Source of the DNA: Chloroflexota bacterium
GTDB taxonomy: Bacteria > Chloroflexota > Dehalococcoidia > SM23-28-2 > JACOUE01
Length of the DNA: 64,000 nucleotides
Assembly: GCA_016178045.1 (NCBI GenBank)
Contig: JACOUE010000005.1
Location: 18,855-82,854, forward strand
Reading direction: 5' to 3'
Part shown: piece after piece, positions 3,322 through 54,197 of the stretch
How the letters are laid out: every line of letters begins with the position of its first letter
Position numbering within the stretch: position 1 is the first letter of the stretch
Translations under genes and position numbers: made by a program
Notes under the pieces: model-generated
The model's database searches: none
Seen by the model: the letters and a program-made list of their open reading frames with translations, nothing else
What the model was told of the DNA's origin: nothing

Positions 3322-5643
3322 CTATTCCTTTATCTTCCCCATCGCCCGGAGCACGCGCTCCGGGGTGATGGGGGCGTCGTAAACGCGGACGCCGGCGGCG
3401 TCCGCCACGGCGTTGGCGATGACGGCGGCGCCGGCGACGATGGACGGCTCGCCTACGATGCGGGCGCCGTACGGCCCGTCCTCCGACGGCACCTCGACGA
3501 TGATCGCCTCGATCGGCGGGAGGTCACGGGTCGTCGGCAAGCGGTAGTCGAGGAAGTTCGGGTTCAGCAGGCGGCCCTTGTCGTCGTAGACCATCTCCTC
3601 GGAGAGGGCGATGCCCAGGCCCTGGCTGGCCCCGCCCTGCATCTGTCCCTCCACCGACAGCGGGTTGATGGCGAAGCCGGCGTCCTGGGCGATGGCGTAG
3701 CGCAGGAGCGTGACCTCGCCCGTGTCCGGGTCGACCTCTACCTCCGCGATCTGGACGGTGAAGCCGGGCGCCTGCCGGCGGGCGGTGATGGTACCGGTGC
3801 CGACGACGGGGGCGTAGCGGGCGGCGAAGCCGGTGCTCATGTGGCCGATGCGCCCGAAGGTCAGGGTCTTGTCGGTCGAGCCCTTGATTCGGACGACGCC
3901 GTCCTTCATCTCGAGGTCGTCGGGGGCGGTCTCCAGCCGGTGCCCGGCGATCTCGAGGATCTGACGCCGCGCCTCGTCGGCGGCCAGCTTCACGGCCCGC
4001 CCGACGGTGAAGGTAGTCTTGGAGCCGGCGCTCATGCCGGCGTAGGGGGCGGTCTTGGTGTCGCCGGTGGTGACGTTGACCATGGACATGGGCACATTCA
4101 GCTCCTCCGCGGCGATCTGGGCGAAGGAGGTGTTGGTGCCGGTGATGTCGGCGGCGCCGACGATGACGTTGATGGTGCCGTCGCCGTTGAGGCCGACGGT
4201 GGCGCTGGCGGGCTGGAGGCCGCCCAGCCAGCCGCCCACGGCCAGGCCGACGCCGCGGGCGGGCGGGTGCCCGTCTGGGCGGTTGGGGTGCTTCCTGGAG
4301 TCGCGGCGCTCGTTCCAGACCGCCGTCTCGCTTATGGCCTGGAGGCACTCCTTCAGGCCGATGGCCGGGTAGGGCTGGCCGCTGGGCAGGGGGTCGCCCT
4401 TCTCCACGGCGTTCTTCAGCCGCACCTCCAGCGGGTCGAGGCCCAGCTTGCGGGCCATCATGTCCACGGCGCTCTCGATGGCGAAGGTGGCGTTGTGGGC
4501 GCCGGGGGCGCGCAGGGCGCCGACGCTTACCTTATTAGTAAGCACCTCGTAACCCTGGATGCCCAGGTTGGCGCACTTGTAGTAGCCGCCGATGATGAGG
4601 CAGCCGGGGAGCATGGGGGCGCCGGGGAAGGCGCCGGAGTCGTAGATGAGGCGGGCCTGGAGGGCGGTGAGGGTGCCGTCCGCCTTCATCCCCGTCTTCA
4701 GCTCGACGACGGCCTGGGGGGCGGGTGTGGCGGCGAGGATGTCTTCCTTGCGGCTCATGGTCAGCTTCACCGGCCGCCGCACCACCATGGCCAGGGCGGC
4801 GACCAGCGTCTCGTAGAGGAAGATCTTGCCGCCGAAGCCGCCGCCGACCTCGGTGGCGGTGACGCGGACCTTGGTCTCGGGGATCTCCAGTATCTCCGAC
4901 ACCTCGTCGCGGATGTAGAAGGGGGCCTGGGTGCTGGTCCAGATGGACAGCTCGCCGGTGGCGTCGTAGTCGGCGATGGTGACGTGGGGCTCGATGTACG
5001 ACTGGTGCACCATGCCCGACCACCACGTCCCCTCGACGACGGCGTCGGCCCCGGCGAAGCCCTCCTCGAGGTCGCCCCGCTTGAACGACATCTCGGAGGC
5101 GATGTTGGAAGGCTTGCCCTGCTCCTCCCTTTGCTCCACGCCCGTCGCGATGTGGCCCTTCTCCTCGGTGCGGTCCACCTCGCTCACCGGCGAACGGGCC
5201 AGCGGCGAGTCCTCGGCCATCGCGGCCACCGGGTCGACCACGGGAGGCAGTTCCTCGTACTCCACGCGGACGAGATCGCGCGCCTCCTCCGCCACGTGGG
5301 GGTCGGAGGCGAGGACGGCGGCGACGGGCTGGCCGTAGAAGAGGACCTCGTCCTCGGCCAGGAGGACTTCGCGACGGTTCGAGGGGTTCTTGCGGTGTGG
5401 CGGCAGGTCCGCGGCGGTGACCACGGCTTCCACGCCGGGGAGCCGGCGGGCCTTGGCGCTGTCGATGGACTTGATGCGGGCGTGGGCGTAGGGGGCCATG
5501 ACGAGCTTGGCGTGGAGGAGACGGGGGAGGTGCATGTCGTCGGCGTAGACGGTCTTGCCGGTGACCTTGCCCGCGGCGTCGATGCGGGTGACCGCCTTGC
5601 CGACGACCCGGTACTCCTGTCGCGTGATCGTCTCTTTGGCCAT
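3322..5643 (-). CDS. xanthine dehydrogenase family molybdopterin-binding large subunit (CoxL/aldehyde oxidoreductase-like)
   Basis: 773 aa; MAKETITRQEYRVVGKAVTRIDAAGKVTGK... is the typical N-terminus, with molybdopterin-binding domains throughout. Confidence 0.9.
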   Translation of the reverse strand: MAKETITRQEYRVVGKAVTRIDAAGKVTGKTVYADDMHLPRLLHAKLVMAPYAHARIKSIDSAKARRLPGVEAVVTAADLPPHRKNPSNRREVLLAEDEVLFYGQPVAAVLASDPHVAEEARDLVRVEYEELPPVVDPVAAMAEDSPLARSPVSEVDRTEEKGHIATGVEQREEQGKPSNIASEMSFKRGDLEEGFAGADAVVEGTWWSGMVHQSYIEPHVTIADYDATGELSIWTSTQAPFYIRDEVSEILEIPETKVRVTATEVGGGFGGKIFLYETLVAALAMVVRRPVKLTMSRKEDILAATPAPQAVVELKTGMKADGTLTALQARLIYDSGAFPGAPMLPGCLIIGGYYKCANLGIQGYEVLTNKVSVGALRAPGAHNATFAIESAVDMMARKLGLDPLEVRLKNAVEKGDPLPSGQPYPAIGLKECLQAISETAVWNERRDSRKHPNRPDGHPPARGVGLAVGGWLGGLQPASATVGLNGDGTINVIVGAADITGTNTSFAQIAAEELNVPMSMVNVTTGDTKTAPYAGMSAGSKTTFTVGRAVKLAADEARRQILEIAGHRLETAPDDLEMKDGVVRIKGSTDKTLTFGRIGHMSTGFAARYAPVVGTGTITARRQAPGFTVQIAEVEVDPDTGEVTLLRYAIAQDAGFAINPLSVEGQMQGGASQGLGIALSEEMVYDDKGRLLNPNFLDYRLPTTRDLPPIEAIIVEVPSEDGPYGARIVGEPSIVAGAAVIANAVADAAGVRVYDAPITPERVLRAMGKIKE

Positions 5644-5688
5644 ACGTCGCGACTCTTCTAGCGTCTCATGGCCGAGGCAGGCCGTCGT

Positions 5689-6177
5689 TCAACGCATCCT
5701 GTCCGCGGCGGACAGCACCGCCTCGTATATCTTGGTGTAGCCGGTGCAGCGGCAGAGGTTTCCGGCCAGGCCCAGGCGGACGTCGTCCAGAGTCGGGTTT
5801 GGGTTGGCGTCCAGGAGGGTCTTGGCCGCCATGATCATGCCCGGGATGCAGAAGCCGCACTGCACGGCGCCGGTGTCGATGAACGCCTGCTGAACGGGGT
5901 GGAGCCGGCCGTCGGCGCCCGCGACTGGCGATGGGGCCAGCCCCTCAATGGTGGTGACCTCGGTGCCGTCGGCCTGCGCGGCCAGCATGAGGCATGAGGT
6001 GACGAGCCTGCCGTCCACGATCATGGAGCAGGCGCCGCAGTCGCCGGTGCCGCAGCCCTCCTTGCTGCCGGTGAGGCGCAGCGCCTCTCGCACGGTGTAG
6101 AGAAGGGTCCAACGGGGCTCGACGGCGATCTCCTGGCGCTCGCCGTTAACGTTGAGGGTGATGATCTGCTTCGACAT
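5689..6177 (-). CDS. (2Fe-2S)-binding small subunit of molybdopterin hydroxylase (CoxS-like)
   Basis: 162 aa with CGTGDCGAC and C.FC...C.C motifs for the two [2Fe-2S] clusters. Confidence 0.9.
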   Translation of the reverse strand: MSKQIITLNVNGERQEIAVEPRWTLLYTVREALRLTGSKEGCGTGDCGACSMIVDGRLVTSCLMLAAQADGTEVTTIEGLAPSPVAGADGRLHPVQQAFIDTGAVQCGFCIPGMIMAAKTLLDANPNPTLDDVRLGLAGNLCRCTGYTKIYEAVLSAADRMR

Positions 6178-6179
6178 CG

Positions 6180-6407
6180 TTACTCAGAGCCCATGTAGTG
6201 CCTCATGATGAGCCAGTTCTCTTTGGGACGGGCCACCTCCACGAAACCGGCCCTGCGGAAGGTGGAGACGACGCCGGTGTAGCCCGAGTAGCCATACAGG
6301 GGCTTGGTGGCCTCGAACGGGTATCCGTCAAGCATGGTCGCCGCGTGCCCCCGCGCGTATTCTACAGCGGCCCGCAGGAGCTTGACCATAAGGCCCTGGC
6401 CTCGCAA
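6180..6407 (-). pseudogene. GNAT acetyltransferase C-terminal fragment (N-terminal half missing)
   Basis: 75 aa ORF carrying only the GNAT motif A/B region (RGQGLMVKLLRAAVEYARGHAA...GYTGVVSTFRRAGF). Only 15 nt separate it from the upstream MOSC stop, so there is no room for the N-terminal half. Confidence 0.5.
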
Positions 6408-6422
6408 CTCTTTGCAAGAGGA

Positions 6423-7187
6423 TCACTGCAACTTCACCCGGTCGCCGCGGCGGATCACGCCCTGCTGTAACACCATGGCGTACACGCCTACGTTGGCCTT
6501 GTTGTGCTGCGCGGATGCCCGCAGGATGCCGTAGTCCTGGGGCAGGTCGTCCTGGGGCAGGGTGGTCATCACACAGCGGGGGCAGGGGCTGAAGACGCGC
6601 AGGCGCACCTCTTCGCCGACAGCGAGCGTCTGGTTCAGCCACGCATTCTCGACGAAGTCCATCTGCCCGGGGGTCTCCACCACGATGTTCGGCCGGAACC
6701 GCCGCGCCTCGAACCGCCCCTGCGGGTAGGCCTCCCGCAGGCGGTCGATGGTGCCCGTGGTCAGGAGGTGGATTATACCCAGGTCGAAGAAGGTGCCCTG
6801 CGGCATGCGCTCGTCGGTGACCGTCTCCCGGTGGATCAGGCCCTCGACGTCCGGCCAGTACTCCTCGAGCTGGGGCGCTTCCGGCGGCGTGGCGGCGAGG
6901 GCCACCGGCCGGCCCAGCACGCCGGCGAGCGTCTTCTCGATGCCGGCCTCGTCGGTGGTGAGGGTTGAGCCGTCGGGGAGGGTGATGCGCACCGGCGGGA
7001 GCCGATCGGGCACCGGCGGCTGGACGAAGGCGGCTCGGAACTCGAACATCTTTGCCCACTTGCGGGGGTTCTTGGCGCTTACCACCTTGCCGTCGCCGCT
7101 ATCGACGAGGGCGTAGACGCGGTCGCCCAGCAGCCCTCTCTGGGTGACGTAGGACGAGTTCAGCTCCTCCCCCATCATCGACTTCAC
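6423..7187 (-). CDS. MOSC domain protein (MOSC N-terminal beta-barrel + MOSC)
   Basis: 254 aa with a conserved C-terminal Cys (VFSPCPRCVMTT), embedded between coxM-like and coxS-like genes. Confidence 0.8.
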   Translation of the reverse strand: MKSMMGEELNSSYVTQRGLLGDRVYALVDSGDGKVVSAKNPRKWAKMFEFRAAFVQPPVPDRLPPVRITLPDGSTLTTDEAGIEKTLAGVLGRPVALAATPPEAPQLEEYWPDVEGLIHRETVTDERMPQGTFFDLGIIHLLTTGTIDRLREAYPQGRFEARRFRPNIVVETPGQMDFVENAWLNQTLAVGEEVRLRVFSPCPRCVMTTLPQDDLPQDYGILRASAQHNKANVGVYAMVLQQGVIRRGDRVKLQ

Positions 7188-7270
7188 CGGATAACGCCAG
7201 AGCGAAGCGACGGAGCCTACGACTGGAGCCTCTGACGACAGGGCGTTCTCCTCTCCTGGTTCCCTAGTCC

Positions 7271-8173
7271 CTACCTGCGCGCCCTCGCCACCGCCTCCTT
7301 GAGGAGGCGCTCGGTCATCACCCCCACCAGGTGGCGGCGGAAGGCAGCGGAGCCGCGGACGTCGGAGATGGGTTTGGCTTCGTCGTGGGCGATCGCGGCG
7401 GCCCCGGCGATGGCTTCGTCGGAGGCGGGCCGGCCTTCCAGGCGGGCCTCCGCGTTCCGGGCGCGCACAGGCGTCGGGGCGACGGCGCCCAGGGCGAGGC
7501 GCACGCGCTGGAAGGCACCGCCGTCAGCCTGCCCTGAGCTTGTCGAAGGGCCCAGGGTCACCAGCGCCGCCACCCCCACGACGGCGATGTCCATCTGCTT
7601 GCGGGGGGTGTGGCGCCGGTAGGCGCCGCCGGTGCGCGGCGGCGGTGGGGGGACTAGAACTTCGACGAGGAGCTCGCCGGGGCGGAGAACGGTCTCCCCG
7701 GGCCCCACGAAGAACTCGTCCAGGGGGACGGTGCGCTGTCCGGAAGGCCCGGCGATGCGCGCCGTCGCCTCGCAGGCCAGCAGCGGCGGGGCGATATCGG
7801 CGGAAGGGGCGGCGTTGCACAGGTTGCCGCCGACGGTGGCCATGTTCATAGTCTGGACGGAGCCGACGATGGACGCCCCCTCGGCGATGATGGGGTAGCG
7901 CTCGCGCACCACGGGGGACTCCGCTACTTCGGCGAAGGTGGCGCCGGCGCCGAGGCGCAGGCCGGTCGCTTCGCTGAAGTCCATTCCCTTAAGCTCGGGT
8001 AGGCGGCGGAGGCTGACGACGTACTCCGGGTAGGGAAACCGCAGGACGCCCTCCTTCATCTGCACGACGAGGTCGGTGCCGCCGGCTAGGGGCCGGCCGC
8101 CGTCGCCGCGCTGACGCAGGACGTCGATGGCTTCCTGGAGGCTGGTAGGGGCGAAGTATTCGAAGGGACGCAT
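7271..8173 (-). CDS. FAD-binding molybdopterin dehydrogenase medium subunit (CoxM-like)
   Basis: 300 aa; the GGTDL FAD-binding motif (LAGGTDLVVQMKEG) and the CO dehydrogenase flavoprotein C-terminal domain. Confidence 0.9.
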   Translation of the reverse strand: MRPFEYFAPTSLQEAIDVLRQRGDGGRPLAGGTDLVVQMKEGVLRFPYPEYVVSLRRLPELKGMDFSEATGLRLGAGATFAEVAESPVVRERYPIIAEGASIVGSVQTMNMATVGGNLCNAAPSADIAPPLLACEATARIAGPSGQRTVPLDEFFVGPGETVLRPGELLVEVLVPPPPPRTGGAYRRHTPRKQMDIAVVGVAALVTLGPSTSSGQADGGAFQRVRLALGAVAPTPVRARNAEARLEGRPASDEAIAGAAAIAHDEAKPISDVRGSAAFRRHLVGVMTERLLKEAVARARR

Positions 8174-13549: not shown

Positions 13550-14248
13550 ATGGAGCTCATAGGCGAGGGGATACGCGAGGCTTTTCGCCTTATCTTCACC
13601 GGCGATGGCCAGGTGTATGCCATCGCGGCGCGGTCGCTGGCTGTCTCCGGGGTGGCGACGGCCATCGGCCTGACGATAGGGTCGCTGCTGGGCCTGGTGC
13701 TGGGGACGCGCAGCTTCGTCGGGCGCAACCTGGTGCTGAGCCTAGTAAACACGGGGATGGCCCTGCCGCCGGTGGTAGTGGGCCTCTTCGTGTTCATGGT
13801 GCTGGTGCGCGACGGCCCGCTGGGCCGGCTGCACCTGCTGTTCACCCCCGCGGCGATGGTGCTCGCTCAGGCGATAATTGTGACGCCGATCGTGACCGCC
13901 CTGACGGCCGCGGCCATCCAGGGGCTCCACCCCAGGCTGCGGCTTCAGATCCTGGCGCTGGGAGCGTCCCGCTGGCAGTGGGCGTGGCTCATGTTCAAGG
14001 AGGCGCGGCTGCCCCTGCTGGCGGCGGTGATGCTGGGGTTCGGCGCCGCCATCCACGAGGTGGGCGCATCTCTTATGGTGGGCGGCAATATCAAGGACGA
14101 GACCAGGGTCCTCACCACGGCCACGGTGCTCGAGACGCAGAAGGGCAATTTCGAGACGGCGATCGCGCTCTCGGTGATCCTCCTGCTGGTCATGTATGCC
14201 GTGAACCTGGCCCTGACCCTGATCCAGCAGCGGAGGCGGCCCCTTTGA
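13550..14248 (+). CDS. tupB: ABC transporter permease (TupB-like)
   Basis: 232 aa polytopic protein following tupA; RBS GGAGGA precedes it. Confidence 0.85.
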   Translation: MELIGEGIREAFRLIFTGDGQVYAIAARSLAVSGVATAIGLTIGSLLGLVLGTRSFVGRNLVLSLVNTGMALPPVVVGLFVFMVLVRDGPLGRLHLLFTPAAMVLAQAIIVTPIVTALTAAAIQGLHPRLRLQILALGASRWQWAWLMFKEARLPLLAAVMLGFGAAIHEVGASLMVGGNIKDETRVLTTATVLETQKGNFETAIALSVILLLVMYAVNLALTLIQQRRRPL

Positions 14249-15339
14249 GCGAAGTCAAGCTGGCGGCCGTGGACGTCCGGCTGGTGCGGGGAAGCCGCAG
14301 CGTGCTGGACGTGCCGCGGCTCGACGTCCACCGCGGCGAGGTACTGGCCGTCGTCGGGCCGAACGGCGCCGGCAAGAGCTCGCTCCTGAACGTGCTGGCC
14401 CTGCTGGAGAAGCCGAGCCAGGGTCGGGTGGTCTTCGACGGCGAGCCCGTAGCCGGCGACCCGCTGTCGTACCGGAGGCGGATGGCCGTGGTGTTCCAGG
14501 AGCCGCTGCTCCTGGACACGACGGTCGAGGCCAACGTTCGCTCCGGCCTCGCCCTGCGGGGCGTGCCCCGCGACGAGCAGGAGCGGCGGATGGAGCACTG
14601 GCTCCGGCGCTTCGGCATCCAGCACCTGAGGCGGCGGTCGGCCTATTTGATCTCGGGCGGCGAGGCCCAGCGGACGAGCCTGGCGCGGGCGCTGGTGCTG
14701 GAGCCGGAGGTGCTGCTTCTCGACGAGCCGTTCGGGGGCCTGGACGCCCCGGCGCGCCAATCGCTCCTGGACGACCTGGAGGCGGCGCTGCGGGAGACGG
14801 GGACGACGACGGTCTTCGTCACCCACGACCGGGGCGAGGCGCTGCGGCTGGGCCGGCGGGTGGCGGTGATGATGGACGGCCGCATCCGCCAGGTGTGTCC
14901 GACGGAGGAGGTGTTCGCCTCGCCGGTGGACGAGGAGGTGGCGGCGTTCGTGGGCGTGGAGACGATAGTGCCCGGCCTGATGCGTACACAGGAGGGAGGG
15001 CTGGCCGTCATCGAGGTGACCGGCCGGTCGATCGAGGCCGTCGCCGACTCTTCGGTGCGGGGCGAGGTGTTGGTCTGCCTGCGGCCGGAGGACGTGGTCC
15101 TCGCGCCCGGCTCCGACAGTGCCTCACCGACGAGCGCGCGCAACCGGTTACGGGCGAAGGTACGCCGCATCGTTCCGGTGGGGCCGCAGGTGCGGGTGGA
15201 GCTGGACTGCGGCTTTCACTTGGTCGCCCTGATCACGAAACAGTCGCTGGAGGACCTATCCCTGCGCCCCGGCGATGAGGTCGTGGCCTCGTTCAAGGCC
15301 ACGGCGGTGCACGTTATCCCGCGCCGCGGCGGCTCCTGA
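14245..15339 (+). CDS. tupC: ABC transporter ATP-binding protein with C-terminal TOBE domain (TupC/ModC-like)
   Basis: TTG start overlaps the tupB stop. Walker A GPNGAGKSS, the LSGGEAQR signature, and a TOBE tail are present. Confidence 0.85.
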   Translation: MSEVKLAAVDVRLVRGSRSVLDVPRLDVHRGEVLAVVGPNGAGKSSLLNVLALLEKPSQGRVVFDGEPVAGDPLSYRRRMAVVFQEPLLLDTTVEANVRSGLALRGVPRDEQERRMEHWLRRFGIQHLRRRSAYLISGGEAQRTSLARALVLEPEVLLLDEPFGGLDAPARQSLLDDLEAALRETGTTTVFVTHDRGEALRLGRRVAVMMDGRIRQVCPTEEVFASPVDEEVAAFVGVETIVPGLMRTQEGGLAVIEVTGRSIEAVADSSVRGEVLVCLRPEDVVLAPGSDSASPTSARNRLRAKVRRIVPVGPQVRVELDCGFHLVALITKQSLEDLSLRPGDEVVASFKATAVHVIPRRGGS

Positions 15340-20486: not shown

Positions 20487-21260
20487 ATGGCAGCGATTTT
20501 TCCGCCAATCAAATGGGGAACCCGTGAAGTGAACTGGACGTGGGTACCCGAGACGGCTGACGAGCTGGCGAGCACCTATCGACCGCTGTTTGCGGAGATG
20601 CTGGGCACGCTGGCGTTCGTGTTCGTGGCTGGATCAATCATGATCGTCGAGAGCGAGGGTGCCGGCTTGGGCCTGCTGGGAATGGCGTTGGCCACCGCTA
20701 TCACCTATGCAATTATCGTATCAGCGCTGTACCCGGTTTCAGGTGGCCACATTAACCCGGCGGTGACCGTCGCCCATGTAGCGGCGCGGCGGATGCCACC
20801 GTCCATCGCGATCCTTTACGTGGTGGCCCAGTTCGCCGGCGCTATCCTGGGCGCCCTGTTGCTCGGGCTTATCTTCCGGGACGTGGTCGCGGACGCCGCT
20901 CGGACGGCTACACTGTCCTTCGGCGACGCGTACCACGGTACCTGGTCGGCGATCTTTACCGGCGGCTTCCTGGAGGCCATCCTGACCTTCGTGTTGGTGC
21001 TGGCCTACTTCGGGACGCTGGTAGACCGCCGGGGCAACCGGAGCCTGGGCGGCTTCGGCGTGGGCCTCGTGCTCATGGTGTCGATGCTGTTCGCCTTCCC
21101 GCTGACGGGCGCCGCCCTCAACGTGGCGCGAGTCTTCGGTACGGCGACAGTGGCGAACCACTGGAGCGACTTCGGGATGTACTGGCTGGGCCTGGTCGGC
21201 GCTGTAGTCGCCGGTCTGGTCTACGAGCACATCCTCGCCTCGCGCGAAGACGAAGCTTAA
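20487..21260 (+). CDS. MIP/aquaporin family channel (first NPA canonical, second motif NVA)
   Basis: 257 aa; SGGHINPAVT and GAALNVARVFG; six TM helices. Confidence 0.85.
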   Translation: MAAIFPPIKWGTREVNWTWVPETADELASTYRPLFAEMLGTLAFVFVAGSIMIVESEGAGLGLLGMALATAITYAIIVSALYPVSGGHINPAVTVAHVAARRMPPSIAILYVVAQFAGAILGALLLGLIFRDVVADAARTATLSFGDAYHGTWSAIFTGGFLEAILTFVLVLAYFGTLVDRRGNRSLGGFGVGLVLMVSMLFAFPLTGAALNVARVFGTATVANHWSDFGMYWLGLVGAVVAGLVYEHILASREDEA

Positions 21261-21329: not shown

Positions 21330-21437
21330 GACATTTCGGCTCTTCGTCATTAGCATCAAGGCAAATAACAACCGGCCCGCCTGGCTCTCGAGCCGCTAGT
21401 GGAGCCCGTTGATCCGGGCTGGAGCAGGGAGGTCAGA

Positions 21438-22226
21438 TTGGCAGGACTGCAGCTGTCGGCCAGCACTCTCGGCCTGACGTCGGGAGACTTCGGGCTGAGG
21501 ACGTGGCGCGCGGTGGCGGCGGAACTGGTAGCCACCGCGCTGTTCGTTTTCGTCGGGGCGGGGGCGGTGGTAACGGTAACCGGGGTCCTGGGGAAGAGCC
21601 CCAGCGATGACGCCGCCGCCCTGGTCGTCATCGCCCTGGCGCACGGGTTCGCGATAGCGGTGCTGGTGGCCGCTCTGGCTACTATCTCCGGCGGGCACAT
21701 CAACCCCGCCGTGACCTTCGCGGCGACGATCACGGGCCGCATAAAGCTGACGACTGGTGTCCTCTACGTGACGGCCCAACTGGCGGGCGCGGTCCTGGGC
21801 GCGAGCCTCCTCAAGGCCGTCTTCGCGAACGACGTGGAGGGGAACCTGGGTGCACACAGCCTGAACCTGGACGCACTGGCCAGCACGGAGATGGGGTGCC
21901 TGCTGGAGATCATCCTGACGTTCGTGCTGGTCTTCGTCGTGTTCGCCACGGCCATCGACGCCCGCGGCTACGGCGGGATCGCTCCGCTGGCCATCGGCCT
22001 TACGGTGATGATCGACCACTTCATCGGAGTTCCTCTGACAGGCGCGTCGATGAACCCGGCCCGCTCCTTCGGCCCCGCGGCCATCGCCAACGTCTGGGAT
22101 GACCACTGGGTTTACTGGGCGGGCCCCCTCGTTGGTGGGGGGCTGGCCGGCCTGGTGTATTACTTCTTCTACATCTACCGCAGGGGCGAGGAGCGAGGCG
22201 TCCCTCCCGCCGTCGCCGAAGAGTAG
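21438..22226 (+). CDS. MIP/aquaporin family channel (both NPA canonical)
   Basis: ORF 21399-22226. TTG 21438 is preferred because GGGAGG lies 6 nt upstream; the alternative ATG 21399 has no SD. SGGHINPAVT and SMNPARSFG are present. Confidence 0.85.
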   Translation: MAGLQLSASTLGLTSGDFGLRTWRAVAAELVATALFVFVGAGAVVTVTGVLGKSPSDDAAALVVIALAHGFAIAVLVAALATISGGHINPAVTFAATITGRIKLTTGVLYVTAQLAGAVLGASLLKAVFANDVEGNLGAHSLNLDALASTEMGCLLEIILTFVLVFVVFATAIDARGYGGIAPLAIGLTVMIDHFIGVPLTGASMNPARSFGPAAIANVWDDHWVYWAGPLVGGGLAGLVYYFFYIYRRGEERGVPPAVAEE

Positions 22227-22241
22227 CCTATTTCTCCCGGC

Positions 22242-22466
22242 CTAAGCCGGCGAGATCTCGGCGACGTAGTGGTAGTGGCAGGAGACGCGCGTCCCCGGCC
22301 GCTCGTCGGGCTCCAGGAAGAGCACCAGCCCGTCCGCCGCGTCGATCGTCCCCACCAGGCGTCCGGTCAGCGCTGGGCCTGCCGGGGCATCCGGCCGCAG
22401 ACGCAAGGTGACGCGCTTCCCCACGTACTGCTGAACCTCAGCGGGCGTTACGCGTTCCTGCGGCAT
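22242..22466 (-). CDS. small hypothetical protein (74 aa)
   Basis: Non-repetitive composition, positioned directly downstream of dut on the same strand. Confidence 0.35.
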   Translation of the reverse strand: MPQERVTPAEVQQYVGKRVTLRLRPDAPAGPALTGRLVGTIDAADGLVLFLEPDERPGTRVSCHYHYVAEISPA

Positions 22467-22480
22467 CCTTCGCCCTCCTC

Positions 22481-22924
22481 CTAGCGGCCGGTAGAGCCGT
22501 GGCCGCCGCCGCCGCGCTGCGTCTCCGAGAGCGCGTGTACCTCCGCAACGTCTAACCTGGCCAGAGCGGTCACCACCAGCTGGGCGATGCGGTCGCCGTG
22601 GCGGACGATGTGGGCCGAGCGGGTGCCGACGACGTACATCGTGACGAGGACCTCGCCGCGGTAGTCGCTGTCGATTGTGCCGAGGGGGACGGCGACGCCC
22701 TGCGAGGATAGGCCGGAGCTGGGCCGGATCTGGGCGTCGTAGCCGCGGGGCACCTCCACGGCGATCCCTGTAGGGATAAGGATAGGGTCACGTCCCACCT
22801 CCACCGGATCTGGGCCCTGGATGCAGGCGTAGAGGTCGAAGGCGGTGGCCCCGGGGGTGGCGCGGCAGGGGAGGATGGCGCCCGGCCTTATGCGCTTGAC
22901 CTTGAGGACGGGTCGGGCGCTCAT
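22481..22924 (-). CDS. dut: dUTP diphosphatase
   Basis: 147 aa carrying dUTPase motifs (ATPGATAFDLY, GLSSQGV, IDSDYRGEV, RHGDRIAQL). Confidence 0.9.
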   Translation of the reverse strand: MSARPVLKVKRIRPGAILPCRATPGATAFDLYACIQGPDPVEVGRDPILIPTGIAVEVPRGYDAQIRPSSGLSSQGVAVPLGTIDSDYRGEVLVTMYVVGTRSAHIVRHGDRIAQLVVTALARLDVAEVHALSETQRGGGGHGSTGR

Positions 22925-23475
22925 CAGTCGACCTGGGCGAGCACCTCGAAGAGCAGCTCGTTGGGCGGGTTGTCCGCCGCGTCGCGGTTATAGTGGGCGA
23001 AGCGGACCGTGCCCTGCCGGTCGATGACGAAGGTGCCGGGCATCTGCATGACGTCGCCGACCGACCGGGAGGTGTGGAAGCCCCTGAGGGCGGCGCTGAT
23101 GCCCCGCAGGACGACCGCGGGGCCGAGCACTTGGTTGAAGGTGCCCCGTTCGAGGGTGAAGGCGTGGTAGGCCTCGCGCTCAGGGTCGGCGAAGCAGGGG
23201 AAGGGAGAGTGGCGGTCGCGGCAGAACTGGTCGGCCTGCTCCGGCGTCCCCTGGGTGACGAGCAGCACCTGCGCCCCCGTCTCTTCGAACTTCTCGTCGT
23301 CCTGACGCAACTGCGCCAGGTGCTCTTTGCAGAACGGTCAGCCGAAGTGGCGCAGGAAGACCAGTACGCTCTTCTGCTTGGACCACAACTCGGAGAGGCG
23401 GAGCTCGGCGCCTTCGGTATTGCGCACAACGAAGTCCGGGGCCTTGTCGCCCACCTTGACCGGTCCCGCTGTCAT
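22924..23475 (-). CDS. Prx-like/AhpC-TSA thioredoxin-fold protein with in-frame TGA (candidate selenoprotein, UxxC motif)
   Basis: ATG 23475 (ATGA overlap with the hydrolase stop) gives MTAGPVKVGDKAPDFVVRNTEGAELRLSELWSKQKSVLVFLRHFG-[TGA 23338-23340]-PFCKEHLAQLRQDDEKFEETGAQVLLVTQG... The ORF track only calls the part after the TGA (22924-23310, TTG start). TGA sits at the first position of the redox CxxC, giving U-P-F-C. The downstream mRNA hairpin cuggcgcAGUUgcgucag (forward 23302-23319) begins about 19 nt after the UGA. Confidence 0.55.
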
Positions 23476-24356
23476 GCCGAACCTCCTTCGTCAAGGAACC
23501 TGGTGATCGCTTCCAGGACGGCCTCCGGCTTCTCCATGGGCGAGAAGTGGCTCCCGCCCTCGATGGTGCCGAGGCGGCCGTCCGCCACCCGCTGGGAGAC
23601 CCCTTCCGCCCCCCACGACAAGTACTGATCCGTCTCCTCGCCGCGCAGGACGAGGACGGGACAGCGCACCCGGGGAAGGACGGACCAGGCGTCCATGGCG
23701 ATACGGCCCTCGTAGATGCGGGCCTCGGTCTCCCCCGGACATTTTAGCTCGATCTGGCCGTCCTCGCGCACGAAGGTGCCCTCCTCCACATAGATGCGCA
23801 GGATATCGCCGCGCCAGCGGGCGAAGGTAGGGCGGCCGCGGTAGGCCTCGGTCATCTCGTCGTAGCCGGGCCAGACGGCACGGCGCTTGCGGGCGCCCTC
23901 GGCGAGCTGGTCGCGGCGGCGGAAGGAGGCTTCGGTCGCCTCGGGCGGGAAGATTATGGGCTCGATGGCAACCAGGCGGGAGAAGAGGTCGGGCCGGGAG
24001 GCGGCGGAGTAGAGGGCGGCGGCGCCGCCGCTGGAGTGGCCGATGGCGACGATGTCGCGAAGGGAGAGGGCGTCCACGAAGCCCGCCAGGTCCTCGGCGA
24101 AGCGGGTCCACTCGTAGCCGGAGGGCGGGCCTTCGGTAGGCCTCGGGACAGGCTTGTCGCTGTCGCCGTGGCCGCGGGCGTCGTAGGCGTAGACGTCGAA
24201 GCGGCGGCTGAGGGGTTCGGCGTAAGGCTTCCATAGGGCGGCGATGAAGCCGGTGGCGTGGAGCAGGACCAGGGGCGGCGCTCCGGCGGGGCCGGCCCAG
24301 CGCAGGTAGTGCAGGCTGAGCCCTTTGACGGAGACAGCCCCATCCTCAGGAGGCAA
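23472..24356 (-). CDS. alpha/beta hydrolase
   Basis: 294 aa with the GHSSGG nucleophile elbow. Confidence 0.85.
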   Translation of the reverse strand: MPPEDGAVSVKGLSLHYLRWAGPAGAPPLVLLHATGFIAALWKPYAEPLSRRFDVYAYDARGHGDSDKPVPRPTEGPPSGYEWTRFAEDLAGFVDALSLRDIVAIGHSSGGAAALYSAASRPDLFSRLVAIEPIIFPPEATEASFRRRDQLAEGARKRRAVWPGYDEMTEAYRGRPTFARWRGDILRIYVEEGTFVREDGQIELKCPGETEARIYEGRIAMDAWSVLPRVRCPVLVLRGEETDQYLSWGAEGVSQRVADGRLGTIEGGSHFSPMEKPEAVLEAITRFLDEGGSA

Positions 24357-24768
24357 CGGGTTCCTCCTCGCGGAAGGCGATGGCGGGTATGAGCGAGCGG
24401 TCGAACTGCCGCAGGCGGCGGGGGCCGAGTGAGCGGACGGACTCGAGGCAGCGGCTTGTCTCCGTGAGGAGGCGCTCTACGTCGACGCCGAGGCAGGACG
24501 GGCGGAACGGCTCCAGCAGGCGGATGCCGCCTTCGAGAAGGTTGATCGTGCCGCGGTGGTTATTACGGAGGAGGTGGTGGAAGCCAGCGGCGACCTTGAT
24601 GAGGCCCTGGTAGAAGTCGGCCAGGTGGGTCTCCTCCCGGTGCCAGATGTCCTCGAACGTCTCGTGGCAGTCGTAGAAGCGCCAGGCGTTGAACTGGCGG
24701 ACGCCCCTGACAAGGCCTTCGGGGTCGACGGCGACGGGGGCGGCAATGTGTGGCTTGGGGGCCTTCAT
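24346..24768 (-). CDS. DUF309 domain protein
   Basis: 140 aa; FNAWRFYDCHETFEDIWH pattern. Confidence 0.65.
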   Translation of the reverse strand: MKAPKPHIAAPVAVDPEGLVRGVRQFNAWRFYDCHETFEDIWHREETHLADFYQGLIKVAAGFHHLLRNNHRGTINLLEGGIRLLEPFRPSCLGVDVERLLTETSRCLESVRSLGPRRLRQFDRSLIPAIAFREEEPVAS

Positions 24769-24812
24769 GGTCGCTTCGAATTGTACGAAGGGCGGCGGCG
24801 AGGGTCAAAGGG

Positions 24813-49943: not shown

Positions 49944-51293
49944 ATGGAGCCGCGCATCCAGTACGCGAAGACCAGCGACGGGGTCAGCATAGCCTTCTGC
50001 ATCATGGGGGAGGGGGCGCCGGTGGTGCTGATGGCAGGCTGGCCGTTCTGCCACCTTCAGGCCGAGTGGATGGTGCCCAGTTATCGCCTGTACCATGAGC
50101 GGCTCGCAGCGGGCGCGCGCGTTATCCGGTACGACCCGCGGGGCTGCGGGATGTCGCAGCGAGACGTCGCCGACCTGTCGGCGGAAGGGCGGGTGCGGGA
50201 CCTGGAAGCAGTGCTTGGACACGCCCGGGTCGATGCTTTCGACATTGTTTCGTGGGGAGTGGGATCACAGGCGGCGGTGCTCTTGGCCTCACGTCAGCCG
50301 GAGCAGTTGCGGCACCTGGTACTCTGGGACACCGCACCGCGGTCGCCGGACCATTACCGGGTCCCGCAGATGGACGGGTTCATAGCACTCGCGAGCACAG
50401 ACTGGGAGATGCTGACCGAGACTGCGGCGGCTGTGTACTTCGGATGGTCGCAGGGCGACGAGACGCGAAAGTTTGCCGCCTACTTGCGCGAGTGCGTCAC
50501 GCAGGCTGACGCCCTACGGGCGTTTGAAGCTTCGGCCAATCGGGACCTGACGCCACTTCTGCCAAAGATAGCAGTCCCGACCCTGGTCCTGCGGCACCAT
50601 GAGCAGTTTTTCCCCTCGATGGAGATGGCTGCCGAGCTTACATCGGCCATCCCGGGAGCGGCAATGGCGACGCTGGAGGGCCGCTGGATCACGACAGACC
50701 AGCGTGCCGAGGCCGCTGCCAGAGCGATGTCTGAGTTCATACACGAGGGCCATCACGAACAGCAAACAGGTGGCGTCGGAATGCAACTTCCTTCCGGCAC
50801 GGCAATTATCCTCTTCGCCGACATCGTCGACTCCATCGCCCTCACGGAGCGCCTCGGCGACGCCGCCTTCCGCCAGAAGGCGCGGGAGCTGGATGGTTCG
50901 CTCCGCTCCCTCATCAGCGAGAACGGCGGGACACCGGTGGAGGGAAAGCTGCTGGGCGACGGCGTGCTGGCCGTCTTCACGTCCGCCCGTCAGGCCATCG
51001 ACGTGGCGCTGCGCTGCGGGAAGGCGGGCAGCCACGGGGGGCTGCCCCTACACCTGGGCATTCACGCCGGCGACGTGATCCGCGAGGAGGGCAACGTCTA
51101 CGGCGGCGCCGTGAACATCGCCTCGCGCATCAGCGGCCTCTCCGCGCCGGGGGAGGTGCTGGTCTCCGACACCGTACGGGGGCTGGCGCGCACGTCTGCG
51201 GGCGTGTCGTTCGAGGACCGAGGCGAGCAGACGCTCAAGGGCGTGTCGGAGCCGGTGCGGCTGTTCGCTGTGCGAGAGCGGGAGGACGGGTGA
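49944..51293 (+). CDS. alpha/beta-hydrolase-fold domain fused to class III adenylate/guanylate cyclase domain (paralog 1 of 3)
   Basis: 449 aa with C-terminal cyclase domain motifs GTAIILFADIVDS, KLLGDGVLAVF and GGAVNIASR. Confidence 0.8.
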   Translation: MEPRIQYAKTSDGVSIAFCIMGEGAPVVLMAGWPFCHLQAEWMVPSYRLYHERLAAGARVIRYDPRGCGMSQRDVADLSAEGRVRDLEAVLGHARVDAFDIVSWGVGSQAAVLLASRQPEQLRHLVLWDTAPRSPDHYRVPQMDGFIALASTDWEMLTETAAAVYFGWSQGDETRKFAAYLRECVTQADALRAFEASANRDLTPLLPKIAVPTLVLRHHEQFFPSMEMAAELTSAIPGAAMATLEGRWITTDQRAEAAARAMSEFIHEGHHEQQTGGVGMQLPSGTAIILFADIVDSIALTERLGDAAFRQKARELDGSLRSLISENGGTPVEGKLLGDGVLAVFTSARQAIDVALRCGKAGSHGGLPLHLGIHAGDVIREEGNVYGGAVNIASRISGLSAPGEVLVSDTVRGLARTSAGVSFEDRGEQTLKGVSEPVRLFAVREREDG

Positions 51294-51441: not shown

Positions 51442-52800
51442 GTGGTAACAACCATGGAGCCGCAGATCCAGTACCTCAAGACCACGGACGGCGTGAGCAT
51501 TGCGTACTACGCCATGGGCCAGGGAACGCCGCTCGTTTGCATGAACTTGCCCAACTCGCACCTTCAGATGGAATGGCAGATGAGCGACACGCGGCAGACC
51601 TACGAAGCGGCGGCGCGTTTAGGCACGCTCGTCCGCTACGACCATCGCGGGTTTGGGCTGTCTGATCGCGACGTGAGCGACTTCTCGATTGAGGCCCTGC
51701 TTCGCGACTTGCAGGCGGTAGTGGACAGGCTGGAGCTGAAGAGTTTCAACCTGTTGTCGTACCGCTTCTCGTCGCCGCTGGCGATCGCTTTCGCAGCAGG
51801 GCAGCCGGACCGCGTGTTGAAGCTCGTCCTCTGGCCCGGCTACGCCCGGCTGCCCGAGACTTACACGGAAGCGATCGGGAAGATGCTCGCGCTGGACGAA
51901 TCGCAATGGGAGTTCACAACGGAGTCGCTCGTAAGGTTCGGCCAGGGCTGGTCGGACGAGATGTCCGGGGCGGCGGCTGCCACGCTTCGAGAAGCGATCA
52001 CGCCACAGACGGCCAGCGAATGGTTCCGGCAGGCAAAGGAGTGGGAGGTCTCCGACATGGTGCGCGACCTGACTATGCCGACGCTTCTCATCTGTGAAAA
52101 GGGCGACAGATACCTTGGGACAGACGTTGCCCGCGAGCTTGCCAACACAATGGCTGACGCTCGCGTCACGATTCTGGACGGCGCCTCGCGCCCGGAGAGG
52201 ATGGTGCAGGCGGTGACGGCCACAGTACCATTCCTTCTCGGCCGACAAGCCGGCCCTCAGCCGGACGCGCCTGACCTCCCCTCCGGCACCGCCGTCATCC
52301 TCTTCGCCGACATCGTCGACTCCACCGCCCTCACCGAGCGCCTGGGCGACGCCGCCTTCCGCCAGAAGGCGCGGGAGCTGGACCGTTCGCTCCGCTCCAT
52401 CATCAGCGAGCGGTCCGGCACGCCGGTCGAGGGCAAGCTGCTGGGCGACGGCGTGCTGGCCGTCTTCACGTCCGCCCGTCAGGCCATCGAGGCGGCGCTG
52501 CGCTGCGCGGCGGCGGGCAGCCACGGGGGGCTGCCCCTACACCTGGGCCTCCACGCCGGCGACGTTATCCGCGAGGAGGGCAACGTCTACGGCGGCGCCG
52601 TGAACATCGCCTCGCGCATCAGCGGCCTCTCCGCGCCGGGGGAGGTGCTGGTCTCCGACACTGTACGGGGGCTGGCCCGCACGTCGGCGGGCGTGCGGTT
52701 CGAGGACCGCGGCGAGCAGCCGCTGAAGGGTGTCTCAGAGCCGGTGCGGGTGTGGGCGGTCTCCCCCTCTCCATCGCATGGAGAGGGGGCCGGGGGGTGA
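51442..52800 (+). CDS. alpha/beta-hydrolase-fold + class III cyclase (paralog 2); C-terminal tail encoded by a palindromic element
   Basis: 452 aa; MEPQIQYLKTTDGVSIAY..., and the cyclase domain is near-identical to paralog 1. The palindrome ccccctctccatcgcatggagaggggg (52769-52796) encodes SPSPSHGEGAGG. Confidence 0.8.
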   Translation: MVTTMEPQIQYLKTTDGVSIAYYAMGQGTPLVCMNLPNSHLQMEWQMSDTRQTYEAAARLGTLVRYDHRGFGLSDRDVSDFSIEALLRDLQAVVDRLELKSFNLLSYRFSSPLAIAFAAGQPDRVLKLVLWPGYARLPETYTEAIGKMLALDESQWEFTTESLVRFGQGWSDEMSGAAAATLREAITPQTASEWFRQAKEWEVSDMVRDLTMPTLLICEKGDRYLGTDVARELANTMADARVTILDGASRPERMVQAVTATVPFLLGRQAGPQPDAPDLPSGTAVILFADIVDSTALTERLGDAAFRQKARELDRSLRSIISERSGTPVEGKLLGDGVLAVFTSARQAIEAALRCAAAGSHGGLPLHLGLHAGDVIREEGNVYGGAVNIASRISGLSAPGEVLVSDTVRGLARTSAGVRFEDRGEQPLKGVSEPVRVWAVSPSPSHGEGAGG

Positions 52801-52805
52801 GGCCG

Positions 52806-54197
52806 ATGGAGCCGCGCATCCGGTACGCGAAGACGGCGGACGGCGTTCGCATAGCCTGCTATGCGGAGGGCGAAGGCCTCCCGCTCGTGTATCTTCTCCC
52901 CTTATCTGGGCACTTACAGCTCGACTGGGACCTCTTCCGTGGCAACTATGAATCGTTTCCCAGGCGCGGTTACCGGCTGATCCGCTACGACTTCCGCGGC
53001 TCGGGGCTGTCCGATCATGCGGGCAACTACTCTGTCGAAGAGTTCACACTGGATCTGGAGGCGGTGCTGGCCCGATTCGGCGTCGAGGCCTGTGCCATAT
53101 TCGCAAATGGGCCATCCAGTCCCTTTGCAATCGTGTTTTCGGCAACCCGACCGCAGCACGTGTCCCATCTCGTGCTCCACGAGCCTTTCGCTGCGTTCGA
53201 TCAGATAGCAGGAGGGTCCCAGGTCCGAGCGTTGATGGCGCTATTGGACAGCGACTATGTGGTTTTCACCGAGACGATTGCCAGCGTCTTCTTCGGGTGG
53301 GCGGCTGGCGACGTGCCCCGCCGGTATGCTGCCCTCCTCCGCGAGTCGCAGACGCATGGTGAAGCGCGCCGGGCAGCGCAATCGATGGCCTCGCTGGACT
53401 CTCGCCCGTTCCTGAGCGACGTGCGGGCGCCTACTCTGATCTGCCACCATCGTGGCGCATCACTTGTGCCTATCGAGGTGCTACGGGATTTGTCGTCAGG
53501 CATTCCAAACGCGAGCTTAGTGGTGATGGAAGGCGAGACCGTCGCCGGCGACATCAACTCGCCGCAGATGCGGGAGGCTGTCGACGAGTTCCTCCTCGGC
53601 GCCGCTAGTGTACCTAGTGTTGTCCCGCCGCTTGCGTCTGCCACCGTGGACGCCGCCGCTACTGCTGGTGGAACGTTCCGCACGATCCTGTTCACGGATG
53701 TGGAGGGCTCGACGGCCATCACTCAGCGGCTCGGGGACGAGGGGGCGCGGGAGGTGCTGCGGGAGCACGAGCGGATTGTGCGAGAAGCGCTGAAGGCGCA
53801 CGGGGGCGCCGAGGTGAAGACGATGGGGGACGGCTTCATGGCCTCGTTCGCCTCGGCGACGAAGGCGCTGGAGTGCGCCATCGCCATTCAGAAGGCGATC
53901 CAGGAGTGGAACCAGACCGCTCGTGGTGAGCCTGTCGAACCACGAGCGGAGGAGATACGGGTGCGCATCGGCCTGAACGCCGGGGAGCCGATCGCGGAAG
54001 CGGACGATTTATTCGGCACGGCGGTGAACATGGCCGCGCGGATTGCGGCGAAGGCGGAGGGCGGCGAGATACTGGTGTCGGACGTCGTGCGGCAGCTGCT
54101 GGCGGGCAAGGGGTTCGTCTTTGCGGACCGGGGGGAGATGCCGCTGAAGGGGTTCGAGGAGCCGGTGCGGCTGTTCGAGGTGAGATGGACGACCTGA
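52806..54197 (+). CDS. alpha/beta-hydrolase-fold + class III cyclase (paralog 3, more divergent)
   Basis: Start ATG 52806 with RBS GGGGGTGAGG; MEPRIRYAKTADGVRIAC...; cyclase domain FTDVEGSTAITQRLGD, KTMGDGFMASF and GTAVNMAARI. Confidence 0.8.
   Translation: MEPRIRYAKTADGVRIACYAEGEGLPLVYLLPLSGHLQLDWDLFRGNYESFPRRGYRLIRYDFRGSGLSDHAGNYSVEEFTLDLEAVLARFGVEACAIFANGPSSPFAIVFSATRPQHVSHLVLHEPFAAFDQIAGGSQVRALMALLDSDYVVFTETIASVFFGWAAGDVPRRYAALLRESQTHGEARRAAQSMASLDSRPFLSDVRAPTLICHHRGASLVPIEVLRDLSSGIPNASLVVMEGETVAGDINSPQMREAVDEFLLGAASVPSVVPPLASATVDAAATAGGTFRTILFTDVEGSTAITQRLGDEGAREVLREHERIVREALKAHGGAEVKTMGDGFMASFASATKALECAIAIQKAIQEWNQTARGEPVEPRAEEIRVRIGLNAGEPIAEADDLFGTAVNMAARIAAKAEGGEILVSDVVRQLLAGKGFVFADRGEMPLKGFEEPVRLFEVRWTT

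Follow-up and report, generated by a model that had tools for sequence, protein, structure and literature searches.

The open reading frame between positions 22924 and 23475 on the complementary strand of the window (the whole stretch of 64,000 nucleotides of Chloroflexota DNA analyzed here) is very probably a functional selenoprotein gene, in which an in-frame TGA would be decoded as selenocysteine (Sec). The original prediction had proposed a candidate selenoprotein of the thioredoxin fold, and this interpretation is supported by the alignment of the TGA with a redox cysteine of Cys-containing homologs, by the conservation of the codon among relatives, by covariation in a hairpin downstream of it and by the enrichment of such hairpins in Sec over Cys forms. 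The comparative evidence for the recoding step is strong. For the redox chemistry of U46 and C49 we argue by analogy to CxxC enzymes of the thioredoxin fold and to PRXL2B, and our confidence in any specific substrate of the redoxin is well below that in Sec decoding.

Reading frame and conservation of the internal TGA

Translation of the complementary strand from 23475 to 22924 yielded 183 sense codons followed by a stop codon, and the sole internal stop was a TGA in the context FLRHFG-TGA-PFCKEH. When Cys was put in place of the TGA, we obtained Pfam matches to AhpC-TSA (7.7e-26, residues 8-159), AhpC-TSA_2 (4.3e-20) and Redoxin (6.1e-18). From the extent of the first match it can be seen that the domain covers both sides of the TGA. 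Thus, a single AhpC/TSA-like frame of about 183 residues with this TGA as its only interruption, as had been read from the sequence before, was recovered. The coordinates of all features are given in Table 1.

Table 1. Sequence features of the redoxin gene and its surroundings in the window
Feature	Position	Strand	Remarks
Promoter-like TTGACC-17-TACAAT	24780-24808	(-)	5' of the DUF309 gene; consensus match only
DUF309 gene	24346-24768	(-)	First gene of the apparent operon
Alpha/beta hydrolase gene	23472-24356	(-)	5' neighbor; TGA stop overlaps the redoxin ATG (ATGA)
Shine-Dalgarno sequence GAAGGAGG	23482-23489	(-)	6 nt 5' of ATG 23473-23475; direct sequence reading
Putative selenoprotein ORF	22924-23475	(-)	183 residues, M1-D183, with U46; stop TGA 22924-22926
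TGA, putative Sec codon U46	23338-23340	(-)	First position of UxxC; aligns with the first Cys of CxxC
TGC, Cys49	23329-23331	(-)	Second (putative resolving) residue of UxxC; peroxidatic-Cys position of peroxiredoxins
SECIS-like hairpin	23301-23320	(-)	8 bp with one G-U pair; folding, covariation
Hairpin 5' arm CCUGGCGC	23313-23320	(-)	
Hairpin loop AGUU	23309-23312	(-)	
Hairpin 3' arm GCGUCAGG	23301-23308	(-)	
Codon for Pro146 in QMPGTFVID	23038-23040	(-)	Thioredoxin-type Pro, opposite the catalytic Arg of peroxiredoxins (HMMER alignment, 2ywn)
Publicly annotated fragment	22924-23310	(-)	128-aa CDS from a TTG start; GenBank MBI1884827.1, 'redoxin domain-containing protein', 130-kb contig
dut (dUTPase) gene	22481-22924	(-)	3' neighbor; ATG shares 1 nt with the redoxin stop (TGATG)
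74-aa ORF	22242-22466	(-)	Last gene of the apparent operon

The spacing of the reading frames and a match to the promoter consensus suggest a probable operon with the order DUF309, hydrolase, redoxin, dut and 74-aa ORF, which would start at the promoter-like site 5' of DUF309. The ATGA by which the redoxin gene overlaps the alpha/beta hydrolase gene, as described before, is present in the sequence, and the proposed coupling to dut takes the form of a 1-nt overlap. On the other hand, the start codon had been called SD-less, and this description had to be abandoned since the Shine-Dalgarno sequence listed in Table 1 precedes the ATG at a distance of 6 nt. In the homologs, the neighboring genes differ from each other and are unrelated to those in the window. 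We therefore rejected the hydrolase and dut as functional clues (guilt by association), and because the gene context varies in this way, it carries no information on the substrate of the redoxin.

Alignment of the window protein with the full-length Cys homologs P0008, P0009, P0011, P0012 and P0037 placed the TGA opposite the first (N-terminal) Cys of their RHFG-C-xx-C motif. In an alignment of 68 sequences, C46 was invariant and the second Cys (C49) nearly so, and the assignment of the TGA to the first Cys of CxxC could be confirmed in this way. We also scanned metagenomes with a narrower alignment (A2) as query and obtained 76 loci, in 57 of which the motif was readable. The codon at the Sec site was TGA in 49 of these 57 loci and TGC or TGT in the other 8, and the TGA alternated solely with these two Cys codons. 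The same position carries TGA in L082-L088 and L165, and likewise in L081.

A protein search returned many close matches of about 128-135 residues, which covered the C-terminal 63-72% of the query, and such short C-terminal matches are the signature of gene callers halting at a conserved TGA. Among the best 42 database matches, we counted 27 Sec forms and 26 cut-off fragments, and no annotated U was present in any of the 120 retrieved homologs. When we read the DNA of seven homologs (P0001, P0002, P0005, P0007, P0026, P0033, P0036), the frame ran through the TGA in all seven. These loci share the motif RH[FY]G-TGA-[PT][FT]C, range in identity from 72% to about 40% and lie in unrelated neighborhoods. 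For P0005, the database protein shows Trp at the Sec site but the DNA reads TGA, and thus the Trp was introduced by the gene caller.

The sequence around the TGA behaves as coding sequence. Over the nine codons from the TGA to the annotated TTG, comparison with L082 (72% identical) gave three synonymous and no non-synonymous changes, which argues that this stretch is translated in frame, and the 45 N-terminal codons encode a protein sequence that is conserved in relatives. A sequence identical to that of the window, including the TGA, was found in a separate Logan assembly, which may go back to the same underlying reads. This assembly, the 49 metagenomic relatives, L082-L088 and L165 all carry TGA, and these data indicate that the codon is genuine and does not result from a read or assembly error. 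When genome contigs were searched with the single protein, only distant Cys or Sec relatives with at most 37% identity were detected.

The hairpin downstream of the UGA

A 7-bp hairpin with an AGUU loop had been predicted about 19 nt downstream of the UGA. Folding reproduced the loop, but the stem comprises 8 bp and begins 17 nt after the UGA, so that the loop begins 25 nt after it. For the 36 nt that contain the hairpin, we calculated a folding z of -3.3 against dinucleotide shuffles, whereas folding of a longer stretch of 76 nt was unremarkable (z = -0.48), and the folding signal is thus local. A hairpin of at least equal quality (at least 8 bp, not more than one G-U pair, a loop of 3-8 nt, G among the first two loop bases, same distance) followed 16 of the 1309 TGA trinucleotides of the window, which corresponds to 1.2%.

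For covariation analysis, we used a set of about 18 sequences, which consisted of all 17 Sec-form relatives with at least 45% identity, L088 and the window sequence; presence of the hairpin was no selection criterion. In the window helix (columns 21-28 with 33-40), 80% of the cells pair, as compared with 32-55% when the 3' partners were slid by 1-3 columns. Double-sided changes occur in seven of the eight pairs, and for pair 22/39 a change from G-C to C-G was seen in 7 sequences. The covariation score (0.449) compares with 0.06-0.15 in the slid controls and was reached by none of 500 column shuffles. Some of the compensating changes alter a residue on one side (HL-AQL vs. HV-VQL), and selection therefore appears to act on the hairpin RNA as well as on the protein.

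The hairpin is not built in the same way throughout the family. Among 51 unique Sec-form sequences, we distinguished at least four to five designs, all of them located 17-34 nt after the UGA. Class A carries the AGUU loop over the codons for Gln-Leu, class B has the sequence UGGCCA-GGY-UGGCCA, class C GCACGU-GGUCG-ACGUGC and class D GCGCUC-CGUGA-GAGCGC, whereas class E is weaker. As proxy for the published model of bacterial SECIS elements, we asked for at least 6 bp in the stem and 3-8 nt in the loop, with a G in the first two loop positions and a loop start 16-37 nt after the UGA, a distance range that reportedly stems from the bSECISearch paper. Such a hairpin was present in 39 of the 51 Sec forms and absent from the remaining 12, and it was found in 4 of 14 Cys forms (odds ratio 8.1, one-sided Fisher p = 0.0015, with kinship ignored). 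Similarly, the local folding z was lower in Sec than in Cys forms (Mann-Whitney p = 0.004, with related sequences counted as independent). Since related sequences were treated as independent, we regard these Sec-versus-Cys statistics as supportive but not decisive. L095, a Cys form close to the Sec form L102, has kept the AGUU loop and shows two mismatches in the stem, a pattern expected if constraint was relaxed once Sec had been replaced by Cys. The bacterial SECIS geometry that had been ascribed to the window hairpin is well in line with its agreement with the proxy, with the covariation and with the Sec-over-Cys enrichment.

Searching the window against Rfam, we obtained no match at the gathering thresholds, and a permissive scan of positions 23150-23500 yielded nothing beyond a microRNA match attributable to chance (E = 0.5). 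To our knowledge, Rfam contains no general bacterial SECIS model, and thus this null result is uninformative either way.

According to Zhang and Gladyshev, selenoproteins are called on the basis of Cys homologs, a conserved TGA and a SECIS-like stem-loop with a G in a small apical loop (PMC1088965). For the window gene, the in-frame TGA aligns with Cys in five protein homologs and in the eight TGC/TGT loci, where at least two homologs are asked for. TGA recurs at the same position not only in the required two different sequences but in the 49 metagenomic loci, L082-L088 and L165, and a SECIS-like stem-loop with a small G-containing apical loop follows just 3' of the UGA.

Protein family and active site

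When U was scored as C, the window protein matched the NCBIfam family NF040769 ('SelL-related redox protein') with 174 bits at a cut-off of 120 (E = 2.1e-51), and the match extended over profile positions 2-169 of 173. Two further Sec forms, L085 (134 bits) and L088 (146 bits), and the Cys forms P0008 and P0011 also scored above the cut-off. NF040769 belongs to the Pfam PF13911 AhpC-TSA_2 / PRX-like-2 group and has the RHFG-[C/U]-xx-C motif, the length and the fold in common with the window protein. However, its named database members that we retrieved are Cys forms, whereas the window gene is a Sec form that was deposited as a fragment. A second Sec-containing Prx-like group, characterized by the motif YRGxW-U-PYC, remained below the NF040769 cut-off, which indicates that several distinct UxxC Prx-like subfamilies exist.

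The selenoprotein SelL (SELENOL) was reportedly described by Shchedrina et al. in 2007 as a eukaryotic and marine-bacterial protein with a UxxU motif that forms a diselenide, and the same authors are said to have noted distant SelL-like proteins, in which one or both Sec are replaced by Cys. Both SelL and the window protein have a thioredoxin fold of the Prx-like type, in which the redox motif takes the place of CxxC. In contrast to the UxxU of SelL proper, the UxxC of the window protein could form at most a selenenylsulfide. With its motif U46-P-F-C49 and a single TGA in the ORF, the window protein does not conform to this definition of SelL proper, and this assignment was rejected.

In the literature, SelL is referred to as 'a Prx-like protein' that occurs in both domains (PMC2398784). 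Prx-like thiol:disulfide oxidoreductase selenoproteins (PF00578; UxxC or UxxU) have been listed repeatedly (PMC1088965, PMC2398784, PMC9312934, PMC13188914). This selenoprotein family was catalogued by Kryukov and Gladyshev in 2004 (listed in PMC1088965), and 'Prx-like 1' (pfam00578, UxxC) comprised 225 sequences and was abundant in ocean metagenomes (PMC2398784). As in our case, the catalogued Prx-like UxxC family combines a SECIS hairpin just 3' of the UGA with abundant Cys homologs; its reference member is WP_010940744.1, to which the window gene is likened here by description. Taken together, the window gene is a further member of the curated SelL-related family, and genes of this type have been known since 2004-2005. 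None of the motifs RHFGU, HFGUP, RHFGC and HYGU was found in the supplementary GOS sequences, which are of marine origin, and in the literature searched we found no use of 'SelL-related' or 'NF040769'. It is conceivable, but rather doubtful, that the RHFG-U-xFC subfamily within NF040769 has not yet been explicitly described as predominantly Sec-containing.

By sequence, the closest solved structures were BCP-type peroxiredoxins, ResA and AhpE and, over the full length, human PRXL2B. In the alignment with the peroxiredoxin 2ywn, R42, U46 and C49 occupy the positions of the Pro, the Thr and the peroxidatic Cys of the PxxxTxxC motif, and P146 takes that of the Arg. In the alignment with ResA, U46 and C49 lie opposite both Cys of its CPHC motif. 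The UxxC motif and the P146 at the Arg position indicate that the predicted active site is thioredoxin-like and not peroxiredoxin-like. The 2ywn alignment also led us to reject a typical peroxiredoxin, since the PxxxTxxC motif and the catalytic Arg are missing.

As structural proxy for the window protein, we modeled its Cys homolog P0008 (47% identical) with AF2 and obtained a model with a pLDDT of 90.3 and a pTM of 0.88. Here, a strand (residues 33-38) precedes a helix (residues 45-56), for which C44 forms the N-cap and which carries C47 in its first turn, and a further strand (residues 148-152) follows the MSG/MPG loop. We defined thioredoxin-fold CxxC oxidoreductases as a working class, which is not a curated family, by a CxxC at the N-terminus of helix alpha-1 after beta-1 and a Pro before beta-3, and these elements were found in the P0008 proxy and in the alignment with the CPHC of ResA. 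The top structural matches of the model were Bcp1/Bcp4, human PGFS (entry of the C44S/C47S mutant), AhpE and ResA. Thus, judged from the P0008 model, BCP/PrxQ, AhpE and TlpA/ResA have the fold in common with the family of the window protein. In contrast to ResA and TlpA, which have an N-terminal signal or membrane anchor, the window protein has neither a signal peptide nor an anchor at its N-terminus, and this suggests that it is probably cytoplasmic. Human PRXL2B (prostamide/prostaglandin F synthase; PDB 9us9, 9usa) matched by sequence over residues 21-179 with E = 1e-4 and superimposed on the P0008 model with a TM of about 0.70-0.83, and the residue numbers of its CxxC (44/47) are the same as in P0008. 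However, it is a eukaryotic Cys protein with about 17% identity, and we do not carry its endoperoxide substrate over to the bacterial protein.

Probable Sec decoding, competing readings and implications

As had been stated before, selA, selB, selD and tRNA-Sec are missing from the 64-kb window, and none of them was found by a tRNA search, by Rfam or by comparison of 30 ORFs with Pfam. The window contains no tRNAs of any kind. ARAGORN detected no tRNA-Sec at 60 homolog loci, and selA, selB and selD were not found beside any homolog. A GC3-based scan for TGA-interrupted ORFs in the window gave antisense or adjacent same-frame genes and no second selenoprotein candidate. Sec decoding has been documented in Chloroflexi (PMC1794560), and because the hairpin is conserved and covaries, it is unlikely that the Sec machinery is absent from the source genome. 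TGA serves as ordinary stop codon in 24 of the 59 heuristically called genes of the window, which rules out a global reassignment and makes the recoding a local one. On the basis of this stop codon usage, genetic codes 4 and 25 were rejected.

If the gene is decoded in this way, the ribosome would initiate at the ATG (23475), which has a canonical Shine-Dalgarno sequence, and would meet UGA46 at a time when the hairpin located 17-36 nt further downstream is still folded. SelB loaded with GTP and Sec-tRNA(Sec) would bind this hairpin, and Sec would be inserted instead of termination. The predicted product is a cytoplasmic thioredoxin-fold protein of 183 residues, in which U46-P-F-C49 caps helix alpha-1 at its N-terminus. 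Its exposed U46 selenolate may attack an oxidized substrate, which could be a disulfide or, as in the PRXL2B relatives, a peroxide or endoperoxide. Cys49 would then resolve the adduct to an intramolecular selenenylsulfide, which a thioredoxin-type reductant may recycle.

The UGA might also be read through without any Sec machinery, for instance by a near-cognate Trp or Cys tRNA or by a suppressor. Position 46 of the full-length product would in that case be occupied by Cys or Trp, and the hairpin would do no more than slow the ribosome. The lack of Sec genes in the window and the W that one gene caller placed at the equivalent TGA of P0005 are compatible with this scenario. However, this W was set by the gene caller over a TGA in the DNA, and TGA acts as a normal stop in the window genes. 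Moreover, the TGA swaps only with TGC/TGT, which is the classic Sec/Cys pattern, and the covarying hairpin has the position and the small G-containing loop of a bacterial SECIS element. We consider such read-through very improbable.

Even less probable is a split or truncated gene, in which translation stops at UGA46 and only the C-terminal part of 128 residues, or nothing functional, is made. The gene callers of GenBank, ENA, JGI and Logan annotated the locus in this manner, but the C-terminal part alone would be devoid of the entire redox motif and of the first beta-alpha unit. Between the TGA and the TTG, the encoded residues, Cys49 among them, are conserved and the codons show only synonymous differences from L082, the 45 codons upstream are conserved as protein, and the same 'split' recurs at the exact Cys position in dozens of lineages. 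Finally, one base change suffices to convert a TGC or TGT Cys codon to TGA, and this could reflect either an error in sequencing or assembly or a nonsense mutation of recent origin (pseudogene); the agreeing Logan assembly may share its reads with the window. This explanation is the least probable of all, since TGA was read at this site in 49 of 57 loci, which come from many separate samples, since the hairpin 3' of it is conserved and covaries, and since coding constraint persists on both sides of the TGA.

With Sec decoding as the preferred reading, the public record would require correction in that MBI1884827.1 corresponds to the C-terminal 128 residues of a selenoprotein of 183 residues, and the Chloroflexota MAG from which it derives would be a probable Sec user. 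A subfamily of SelL-related redoxins is affected as a whole, with members that were deposited as fragments of about 128-135 residues or with a spurious Trp. Such annotation suggests that selenoprotein use is probably under-counted in bacteria of terrestrial habitats and hot springs. The window gene leaves the knowledge of Sec decoding and of Prx-like UxxC proteins unchanged. If our reading is true, Sec use would be under-counted in non-marine, possibly aerobic Chloroflexota and Actinomycetota. In metagenomes from soil, groundwater and hot springs, the close relatives are mostly Sec forms, with Cys forms in the minority (TGA in 49 of 57 loci). All SECIS designs of the RHFG-U-xFC subfamily are written into the codons of one alpha-1 helix, and the subfamily would thus constitute a natural series for the co-evolution of a SECIS element with a protein helix.

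Codon and SECIS variation among redoxin homologs

When we compared homolog loci carrying Cys (TGC/TGT) or Sec (TGA) at the motif position, we found that one Cys form (locus L095, positions 2319-2378, motif HYG-C-TFCQEHALQLRGD) has kept the class-A AGUU loop but carries two mid-stem mismatches, whereas the 8-bp stem is perfect in a closely related Sec form (locus L102, positions 88-147). This pair looks like a case of SECIS decay following Sec-to-Cys replacement. A JGI protein record (P0005, encoded at L165:332-871) reads Trp at the Sec position (RHFG-W-PFC), and the underlying DNA is TGA. Evidently, the gene caller applied a genetic code that assigns an amino acid to TGA, and records of this kind mask Sec forms as seeming Trp variants.

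A second Prx-like UxxC group

The motif YRGxW-[U/C]-P[YF]C marks a second Prx-like group, which is more distant and also includes many TGA forms. The GTDB genomes that carry these forms belong to Planctomycetota, Acidobacteriota, Binatia, Entotheonella, Desulfobacterales and others. Since its members score only 47-59 bits with the NCBIfam model NF040769 (SelL-related redox protein), which is below the cut-off of 120 bits, sequence comparison assigns the group to a separate UxxC Prx-like subfamily. It possibly corresponds to the classical 'Prx-like thiol:disulfide oxidoreductase'.

Gene neighbourhood of the redoxin

GMP synthase, PGK, phosphoglycerate mutase, TIM and a GNAT + aminotransferase pair are common to the window and to L082, the locus of a 72%-identical homolog. 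In L082 the redoxin gene lies between the DAP epimerase and GNAT genes, about 30 kb from its window position, and this gene order indicates that the predicted selenoprotein gene was relocated inside an otherwise syntenic region. Sec forms of the 'REMV[KS]D[FL]RTL' clade are directly followed by a tRNA-Asp(GTC) gene at six of six loci.

Just downstream of the apparent redoxin operon, on the opposite strand, the window carries two tandem paralogous major-intrinsic-protein genes (aquaporin/GlpF-like), the first of which matched Pfam MIP at 6.8e-42.

Other genes in the window

The stretch 3322-8173 (-) holds a gene cluster for a molybdopterin hydroxylase similar in type to CO dehydrogenase and xanthine dehydrogenase. 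Some enzymes of this type carry a labile selenium cofactor, for which SelD would be needed too. In each of three tandem paralogs, an alpha/beta-hydrolase domain at the N-terminus is fused to an adenylate/guanylate cyclase catalytic domain at the C-terminus. Two sizeable window ORFs gave no Pfam match at E <= 1e-5, and the call of the longer one is uncertain because several alternative ORFs overlap there.

Coordinates of window genes, and loci of homologs and matching regions
Feature	Location	Strand	Remark
Molybdopterin hydroxylase large subunit	3322-5643	(-)	
162-aa ORF, same cluster	5689-6177	(-)	
MOSC-domain protein, same cluster	6423-7187	(-)	
FAD-binding subunit, same cluster	7271-8173	(-)	
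ORF without Pfam match	13945-14826	(-)	293 aa
Major-intrinsic-protein paralogs	20487-21260; 21399-22226	(+)	GGHINPAVT motif in each
Alpha/beta-hydrolase-cyclase fusion paralogs	49944-51293; 51442-52800; 52752-54197	(+)	
ORF without Pfam match	57468-58631	(-)	387 aa
Window regions matching L082	39095-47883; 54185-56585		L082:1-7563; L082:10446-12526
tRNA-Asp(GTC)	L144, L145, L149, L150, L152, L153		~110-120 nt downstream of redoxin gene
YRGxW-[U/C]-P[YF]C group	L008, L010, L013, L017, L023, L027, L028, L032, L033, L034, L040		match at ~10001 in most
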